Below, piece after piece: positions 25,458-25,757 of a stretch of 32,000 nt of DNA. Where the stretch lies: NCBI RefSeq assembly GCF_000019345.1, contig NC_010503.1:150001-182000 (forward strand), given 5' to 3'. The first letter of the stretch is position 1; the number at the start of each line of letters is the position of its first letter. The notes below the pieces were generated by a model. That model was not told the origin of the DNA and made no database searches. It worked only from the letters and a program-made list of their open reading frames with translations. A program made the position numbers and the translations under genes. Source of the DNA: Ureaplasma parvum serovar 3 str. ATCC 27815 (lineage in GTDB: Bacteria > Bacillota_I > Bacilli_A > Mycoplasmatales > Mycoplasmoidaceae).

Positions 25458-25757
25458 TTACGCACCTTCTTTCTCTTTCGTATTGATGATTTGATTTAGT
25501 TTTGTTTTTAGAGAAGAATCAATTATTTCCAAGTTGATTTTTAATGATATACCACCAATTAATGATGGATCAACGATAAATTTAATGGGTCTTTCATCGC
25601 CAAAACGACTAATAACAGTTTTTTTAATTCTTTGTTTTTGTTCATCATTCAATTCAAAAGCAGTTTTAATTTCAATAAAACGAGTTTGATTAGAATATGC
25701 TTTTAAACGATTGGCGATAATTTTTGAATATTTTGCTAGTTTAGTATTACTTTGCAT
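25458..25757 (-). CDS. Truncated delta (OSCP)-subunit paralog, C-terminal domain only (99 aa)
   Basis: It has its own AGGAAG RBS and ATG at 25757. [66 protein letters not shown] aligns with the C-terminus of the upstream full-length delta (VLITTAYELTKNQIDRLLQSLKKKY..EKIEPIVVVDKSIIGGLSINFESQVLDNSLKTKLFNI). Confidence 0.75.

Follow-up and report, generated by a model that had tools for sequence, protein, structure and literature searches.

[quoted passage not shown] The short gene lies between the genes for the b and alpha subunits, as the canonical delta gene does, is kept intact across the genus, and evolves under strong purifying selection. On balance, it probably encodes a functional, headless paralogue of delta that would serve as an extra b-binding module of the stator. 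Ureaplasma is the standard example of ATP synthesis powered by urea hydrolysis; to our knowledge, nobody has yet purified or imaged its ATP synthase. The duplicate was probably first mentioned by Glass and colleagues in Nature in 2000. It is annotated as a delta subunit and appears in papers of 2009 and 2014 (Pereyre et al., 2009; Koumandou and Kossida, 2014, PMC4154653), the latter stating that U. parvum “has duplicated ATPF1D in-locus,” with an unclear history, and also noting the long extension of the alpha subunit in this species. In a search of the literature, no paper turned up that treats the second copy as made up of the C-domain only, or that deals with its genus-wide conservation, the selection acting on it, or a link to stalk number. 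New here are the headless architecture, the conservation throughout the genus, the selection, and the connection with work of 2025 in which a delta C-domain recruits one b2 stalk.

The window, meaning the whole 32,000-nt stretch of DNA that was analysed, holds a complete F1Fo operon on its minus strand, with the genes in the order atpI-like, atpB, atpE, atpF, atpH, the 99-aa ORF, atpA, a gene for a 268-aa membrane protein, atpG, atpD, and atpC. ORFs were translated with code 4, in which TGA specifies tryptophan. The two consecutive frames of 179 and 99 aa that the initial annotation had placed between atpF and atpA were found there, and they stand among the following features:

25458–25757, minus strand: gene for the short delta paralogue (delta-prime), 99 aa, an N-terminal helix of ~22 residues followed by the delta/OSCP C-terminal alpha/beta domain
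25767–26306, minus strand: atpH, full-length delta with both domains, 179 aa; Pfam OSCP 127.7 bits and TIGR01145 94.2 bits (above the cut-off)
26310–26927, minus strand: atpF, b subunit with a lipobox N-terminus, 205 aa; Pfam ATP-synt_B at residues 50–180
23056–25455, minus strand: atpA, 799 aa with a C-terminal extension of ~300 aa
25763–25768, minus strand: Shine-Dalgarno (SD) sequence of the short gene, AGGAAG, overlapping the atpH stop codon TAG (25767–25769) and separated by 5 nt from the ATG at 25757
25463–25469, minus strand: SD sequence of atpA, GAAGGTG, inside the last codons of the short gene (EKEGA tail)
19521–19550, minus strand: terminator-like hairpin of 13 pairs directly after atpC, the strongest on the operon strand

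Because the strongest terminator-like hairpin follows atpC, the simplest reading is a single transcription unit that includes the short gene. Two other terminator-like matches on the minus strand (20541–20557 and 28709–28726) are much weaker; promoter-like sites on the operon are not enriched (64 against a shuffle expectation of 55 ± 7.7), and no promoter or terminator inside the operon rises above shuffle expectation. The U. parvum genome, a single contig of 751,679 bp, contains exactly two OSCP-like loci, and by the numbering used in the literature the short gene is probably UU133.

The product of the short gene aligns with the C-terminal half of delta and with no other part of it, a resemblance first noticed by eye and now borne out by BLASTP, hhalign, and Pfam OSCP. 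Formal alignment to the atpH product was significant both pairwise (BLASTP, 39% identity over 64 aa, E 7e-11) and between profiles, where hhalign placed residues 24–92 of the short protein on residues 107–176 of delta (E 1e-21). The Pfam OSCP profile (PF00213) scored 60.6 bits against a cut-off of 22.3, covering only profile positions 93–168 of 172, while in the neighbouring atpH product it spans positions 3–170. Every NCBIfam equivalog for delta matches the short protein and each falls under its own cut-off, including TIGR01145 with 43.6 bits against 57.5. The closest orthologue, at 93% identity, is annotated as “F0F1 ATP synthase subunit delta [Ureaplasma urealyticum].” When a profile of the short family (A1) was compared with solved structures, it matched the delta/OSCP C-domains of 26 distinct sequences, the best being 5dn6_H (E 5e-15). 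An AlphaFold2 model of the short protein, of moderate quality (mean pLDDT 63), has an N-terminal helix and then a β-α-β-β-α arrangement, and its best 46 Foldseek matches are all delta/OSCP chains.

Compared with canonical F1 delta/OSCP subunits (PF00213, TIGR01145; PDB 6n2y_I, 5t4o_L, 5dn6_H), delta-prime thus has the same C-terminal alpha/beta domain, including the LIGG loop and the DxS..KL helix (DxSLKxKL in both), and the same gene position between atpF and atpA. It differs in coexisting with a complete delta and in the absence of the N-terminal helical bundle of ~100 residues that binds alpha in delta, in place of which only ~22 residues precede the C-domain. Among seven aligned orthologues, the hallmark residues D63, G68, G69, D80, S82, L83, K84, K86, and L87 of the C-domain are invariant, as are K6, S11, I14, N16, L18, and Y21 of the N-terminal helix, which is specific to the paralogue. 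A C-domain without its N-domain is also found in the delta-like extension of the N-ATPase b subunit (TIGR03321), a model that delta-prime matches at positions 168–241 of 246. There, however, the domain forms part of the b polypeptide and a separate delta is missing, whereas delta-prime is a separate ORF beside an intact atpH; TIGR03321 scores delta-prime at 35 bits, far under its 224.7-bit cut-off.

The junctions on either side of the short gene are tight. The initial annotation had described an AGGAAG ribosome binding site 9 nt after the atpH stop; the site is real, but it overlaps the TAG, and it is the ATG that lies 9 nt beyond the stop. SD-like purine runs precede the ATG of the short gene in most orthologues. 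At the other end, the gene closes with a TAA stop 2 nt before the atpA ATG (start at 25455), as had been reported. In this arrangement, one mRNA would serve delta-prime and the other subunits, and translation of the short gene would be coupled to that of atpH upstream and of atpA downstream. The C-terminal residues EKEGA are encoded by GAGAAAGAAGGTG, which contains the atpA SD sequence GAAGGTG, and this DNA motif is kept in all seven Ureaplasma lineages. In Ureaplasma sp. ES3154, where the short gene has an earlier stop codon, the motif lies downstream of that stop, so that the tail is conserved at the level of nucleotides. A role of EKEGA as a functional peptide was accordingly rejected in favour of the atpA SD as the explanation, and the tail was left out of the estimate of selection given below.

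Three further candidate features at this locus were also rejected. Readthrough of the stop codon from atpH into the short ORF is not a conserved mechanism, since the relative frame differs among species: the two genes are in frame in U. parvum, where they lie 9 nt apart, and out of frame in U. zalophigenitalium and in the Ureaplasma genome G013. A programmed frameshift that would join delta-prime to alpha fails in the same way, the short gene and atpA being related by +2 in U. parvum and by +1, with an overlap, in U. zalophigenitalium. Finally, an antisense ORF of 111 codons (code 4) at 25435–25770 on the plus strand was dismissed as a mere shadow frame: of the seven lineages, only three have it open (U. 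parvum, U. urealyticum, and one metagenomic lineage), and in the other four it is broken.

The short paralogue is conserved in its lineage. The order atpF-atpH-short gene-atpA, with an intact short frame of 92–102 codons, was read as DNA in seven Ureaplasma lineages, namely U. parvum, U. urealyticum, U. zalophigenitalium, U. miroungigenitalium, Ureaplasma sp. ES3154, G013, and a metagenomic lineage, and two further lineages with the short paralogue are known from proteins alone (P0012 and P0016). Amino-acid identity between species is 40–49% for the short protein, as compared with 37–41% for full-length delta. In P0016, an 87-aa protein from a Logan contig, a divergent C-terminal end replaces the conserved DSSLKTKLN helix; this copy may be frameshifted or decaying, or the contig may contain an assembly error. 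Three genomes of the same genus (G043, G051, and G059) yielded no atpA or atpD, and their DNA matches to the operon are short and at chance level. G051 has one weak OSCP-like match and the other two have the urease alpha gene, and the absence of atp genes from all three was treated as missing sequence, for example assembly gaps, and not as loss. Among eleven other genera of the family that were sampled, each genome has at most one delta match, with the exception of a weak second match in G028. This second match (G028:C17:25618–25788, E 4e-4) resembles the delta C-domain and lies in a 249-aa frame away from atpH.

Codon models showed that the short gene is under strong purifying selection. With GY+F3X4 and code 4 over 92 codons, omega was 0.069 and a value of 1 was rejected (2ΔlnL 142.6); delta and b gave omega values of 0.018 and 0.034 under the GY+F3X4 model. 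Synonymous sites are saturated, so these absolute values are rough; the codon tree for the short gene is longer than 12 substitutions per codon, and pairwise NG86 estimates range from 0.13 to 0.42. The open frame is itself informative. Stop codons are expected at ~7% of random codons in the AT-rich DNA of this gene, and for each of the seven orthologues only 0–4 of 5,000 composition-preserving shuffles had an open frame. In both close species pairs, the dS of the short gene is below that of its neighbours (0.10 versus 0.28 and 0.33; 0.11 versus 0.54 and 0.18), on small counts, and RNA-level constraint around the atpA start may contribute to these low values.

The initial annotation had offered as its alternative a decaying partial tandem duplication, and this is refuted: the frame is intact and syntenic across the genus, selection on it is strong, and the invariant residues persist. 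A related reading, that the short ORF is a functionless leftover of such a duplication, held open because ribosomes must cross it to reach the atpA ribosome binding site, is most improbable. It would explain the conserved C-terminal tail through the atpA SD sequence without any appeal to protein function, and the low dS (0.10 and 0.11 as compared with 0.18–0.54, again from small counts) hints at the nucleotide-level constraint that it calls for. Nevertheless, omega is 0.069 and neutrality is rejected even when the tail is excluded, invariant residues occur all along the domain, all seven lineages keep the frame open in spite of the 7% of random codons that would be stops, and a mere spacer need not keep a fold-specific signature over more than 12 substitutions per codon. 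What stands of the earlier interpretation is thus a paralogue consisting of the C-domain only, with a ribosome binding site tightly coupled to atpH and atpA, and its decaying-duplicate alternative has fallen.

The origin of the paralogue is less sharply defined than its maintenance. In a tree built on 76 shared columns, a well-supported branch separates all full-length deltas of the family from the short copies, and the approximately unbiased (AU) test rejected neither a duplication within the genus (p 0.17) nor monophyly of the short copies (p 0.18). The best hhalign placement of the first 16 residues of the short protein is on the very start of delta, a match that is not significant (E 0.07–0.16) and that would be more in keeping with internal loss of the N-domain than with a simple 5′ truncation. 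Alphaproteobacterial look-alikes were set aside as evidence of transfer, as they had been picked by the search pattern.

The probable function of delta-prime follows from what it retains. In every solved F-ATP synthase known to us, the b2 stator stalk is gripped at its C-terminal end by the alpha/beta C-domain of delta, and the helical bundle at the N-terminus of delta caps F1 and binds the N-termini of the alpha subunits. Delta-prime keeps what would be the stalk-holding unit and dispenses with the F1-capping bundle, which suggests, most simply, that it binds b and forms part of the stator. Its expected partner, as for delta C-domains in general, would be the product of atpF, which it would bind alongside the normal delta. 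Such an extra module could reinforce a single stalk, tether additions that are specific to Ureaplasma, cap b for assembly or regulation, or anchor a second b2 stalk. What the analysis shows directly is the homology with its domain content, the operon position, the genus-wide conservation, and the purifying selection; production of delta-prime, its binding to b, and its presence in the mature enzyme are inferred.

Recent engineering of the Bacillus PS3 enzyme bears directly on the headless architecture. The delta N-domain lies at the top of F1 on the pseudo-threefold axis of α3β3, where it binds alpha N-termini, engaging two of the three, while the delta C-domain and one alpha N-terminus hold the top of the b2 stalk (Ueno et al., 2025, PMC12229609). 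When delta without its N-domain was fused to alpha, the resulting FoF1 carried up to three b2 stalks (PDB 9jc1); each copy of the C-domain bound b2 canonically, each stalk carried one a subunit, the H+/ATP ratio was doubled, to 5.8, and ATP was made at low pmf (PMC12229609). The authors proposed that the delta N-domain limits the enzyme to one stalk, and they noted natural fusions of the delta C-domain to alpha in Acidaminococcus fermentans (PMC12229609). Like these fusions, Ureaplasma has a headless C-domain directly before alpha. It differs from them in that delta-prime is not covalently joined to alpha, a TAA stop and 2 nt intervening before the atpA ATG with no conserved frameshift relation, and in that the full-length delta keeps its N-domain and hence the symmetry-breaking cap. 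The suggestion of the initial annotation that the paralogue might add to or compete for the peripheral stalk fits the rule of one delta C-domain for one b2 dimer that emerges from this work (PMC12229609).

The same comparison raises, as a specific form of the stator-module reading, the possibility that delta and free delta-prime each hold one b2 together with one a subunit, so that the Ureaplasma enzyme would be a natural two-stalk ATP synthase. This is unlikely, even though the engineered PS3 enzyme provides its principle, one delta C-domain for one b2 and one a (PMC12229609), and nature an example. The F1Fo of Chloroflexus aurantiacus is δ2b4a2, with one delta C-domain for each stalk (PDB 9itj, PMC12002316). 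If both delta and delta-prime were incorporated, Ureaplasma would likewise have two C-domains available; the two deltas of Chloroflexus, however, are identical and dimerise through shortened N-domains, whereas those of Ureaplasma are one normal and one headless. A two-stalk enzyme would suit an organism that is said to owe 95% of its ATP to urea hydrolysis, by way of a chemiosmotic gradient (PMC5015763), and the end of delta-prime, 2 nt before atpA, recalls the natural fusions of Ueno et al. Against it, the proposed one-stalk limiter, the N-domain of full-length delta, is present, and the anchoring of delta-prime to F1 is left unexplained, as it is unfused to alpha and its frame relation to atpA varies. 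In addition, Pfam and NCBIfam profiles showed no N-terminal extension in alpha and no duplicated C-terminal tail in b, the end of atpF being normal.

Some of these points also weigh against the favoured reading of delta-prime as an extra stator module. With an intact delta N-domain at the top of F1 (Ueno et al., 2025), the docking place of a free C-domain comes into question, and the same absence of an alpha extension and of a second b tail applies. The moderate quality of the AlphaFold2 model and the divergent, possibly decayed, end of P0016 likewise count on this side.

The consequences differ with the reading. The 2025 work does not cover a delta C-domain that stands free, is conserved and selected, and accompanies a normal delta; such a pairing tests the idea of the N-domain as the one-stalk limiter. 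If the enzyme did have two stalks, protons per ATP would be approximately doubled and ATP could be made from a small urea-derived gradient. More generally, the number of delta C-domains encoded in an operon (one, two, or three, fused or split) might then set the stalk number in many bacteria, a generalisation that belongs to this unlikely alternative and shares its standing. If delta-prime merely reinforces or assembles the stalk, it would be a modest, genus-specific elaboration of a well-known complex. As the enzyme supplies most of the energy of a human urogenital pathobiont, a lineage-specific subunit would be of interest as a selective target.

More general support for delta-prime as a part of the stator comes from other bacteria. 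An exhaustive protein search found delta proteins with multiplied C-domains, among them P0008, a single polypeptide with one N-domain and two C-domains, P0004, a 364-aa protein with an N-domain and three C-domains that is annotated as delta of Clostridium argentinense/faecium, and, grouped with P0004, two others (P0022 and P0036). Proteins of ~145–180 aa composed of two C-domains in tandem also occur outside Ureaplasma; one of them (P0011, L125:1972–2433) is the only delta of a complete metagenomic operon of the order a-c-b-delta-alpha-gamma-beta-epsilon. At another locus (L126:6001–6438), a 145-aa OSCP-family protein is encoded directly before alpha, and gamma and beta look fragmented in the gene calls. 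Extra delta C-domains per complex are, as judged from these genes, a recurrent natural design. The Ureaplasma pair resembles them in giving an atp operon more than one delta C-domain, and it looks like a split form of the N-C-C architecture, the others being single polypeptides. Such fused forms lend Rosetta-stone support to the assignment of delta-prime to the stator. A search of the literature found no paper on multi-C-domain deltas, and we know of none that has been studied experimentally.

The fused proteins also bear on whether delta-prime acts only in passing. It could be an assembly factor or regulator that caps the C-termini of b2 before F1 docks, or that competes with delta, and that is absent from the mature enzyme. 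To retain a presumed b-binding domain while the F1-binding domain is gone is how competitive or chaperoning fragments are classically built, and a multi-omics study of U. parvum reports that the abundance of ATP synthase subunits depends on pH, which makes regulation plausible. Yet the place of the gene in the operon, coupled on both sides, predicts roughly equimolar synthesis, which would be costly for a regulator, and the fused multi-C-domain deltas indicate that extra C-domains can be permanent parts of delta. The chance that delta-prime is such a transient factor accordingly appears small, while a stator module remains the preferred reading.

Partners other than b have also to be considered, in particular the C-terminal extension of alpha, the two-pass membrane protein whose gene separates atpA from atpG, and a separate F1-like ATPase cluster. 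Delta-prime, the alpha extension, and the membrane protein co-occur in the Ureaplasma lineages examined: locus L120 has delta-prime with a 776-aa alpha and a 281-aa gene, and the extended alpha is also present in the Ureaplasma genomes G001 and G013. F1-like clusters, moreover, have no recognisable delta (PMC3369863). Co-occurrence within one genus amounts to a single evolutionary event, however, and has little weight; the conserved core of delta-prime is the canonical signature of the delta C-domain, which favours the ancestral partner b, and the short gene sits in a genuine F1Fo operon and not in an F1-like cluster. A partner other than b is therefore distinctly improbable. With regard to the alpha extension itself, residues 669–799 (23056–23450) hit, with E 2e-42, the NCBIfam model NF008917, which is named “50S ribosomal protein L22/unknown domain fusion protein,” and the same module is also found in a second frame of ~311–336 aa in other Ureaplasma (G001:C6 and G013:C3).
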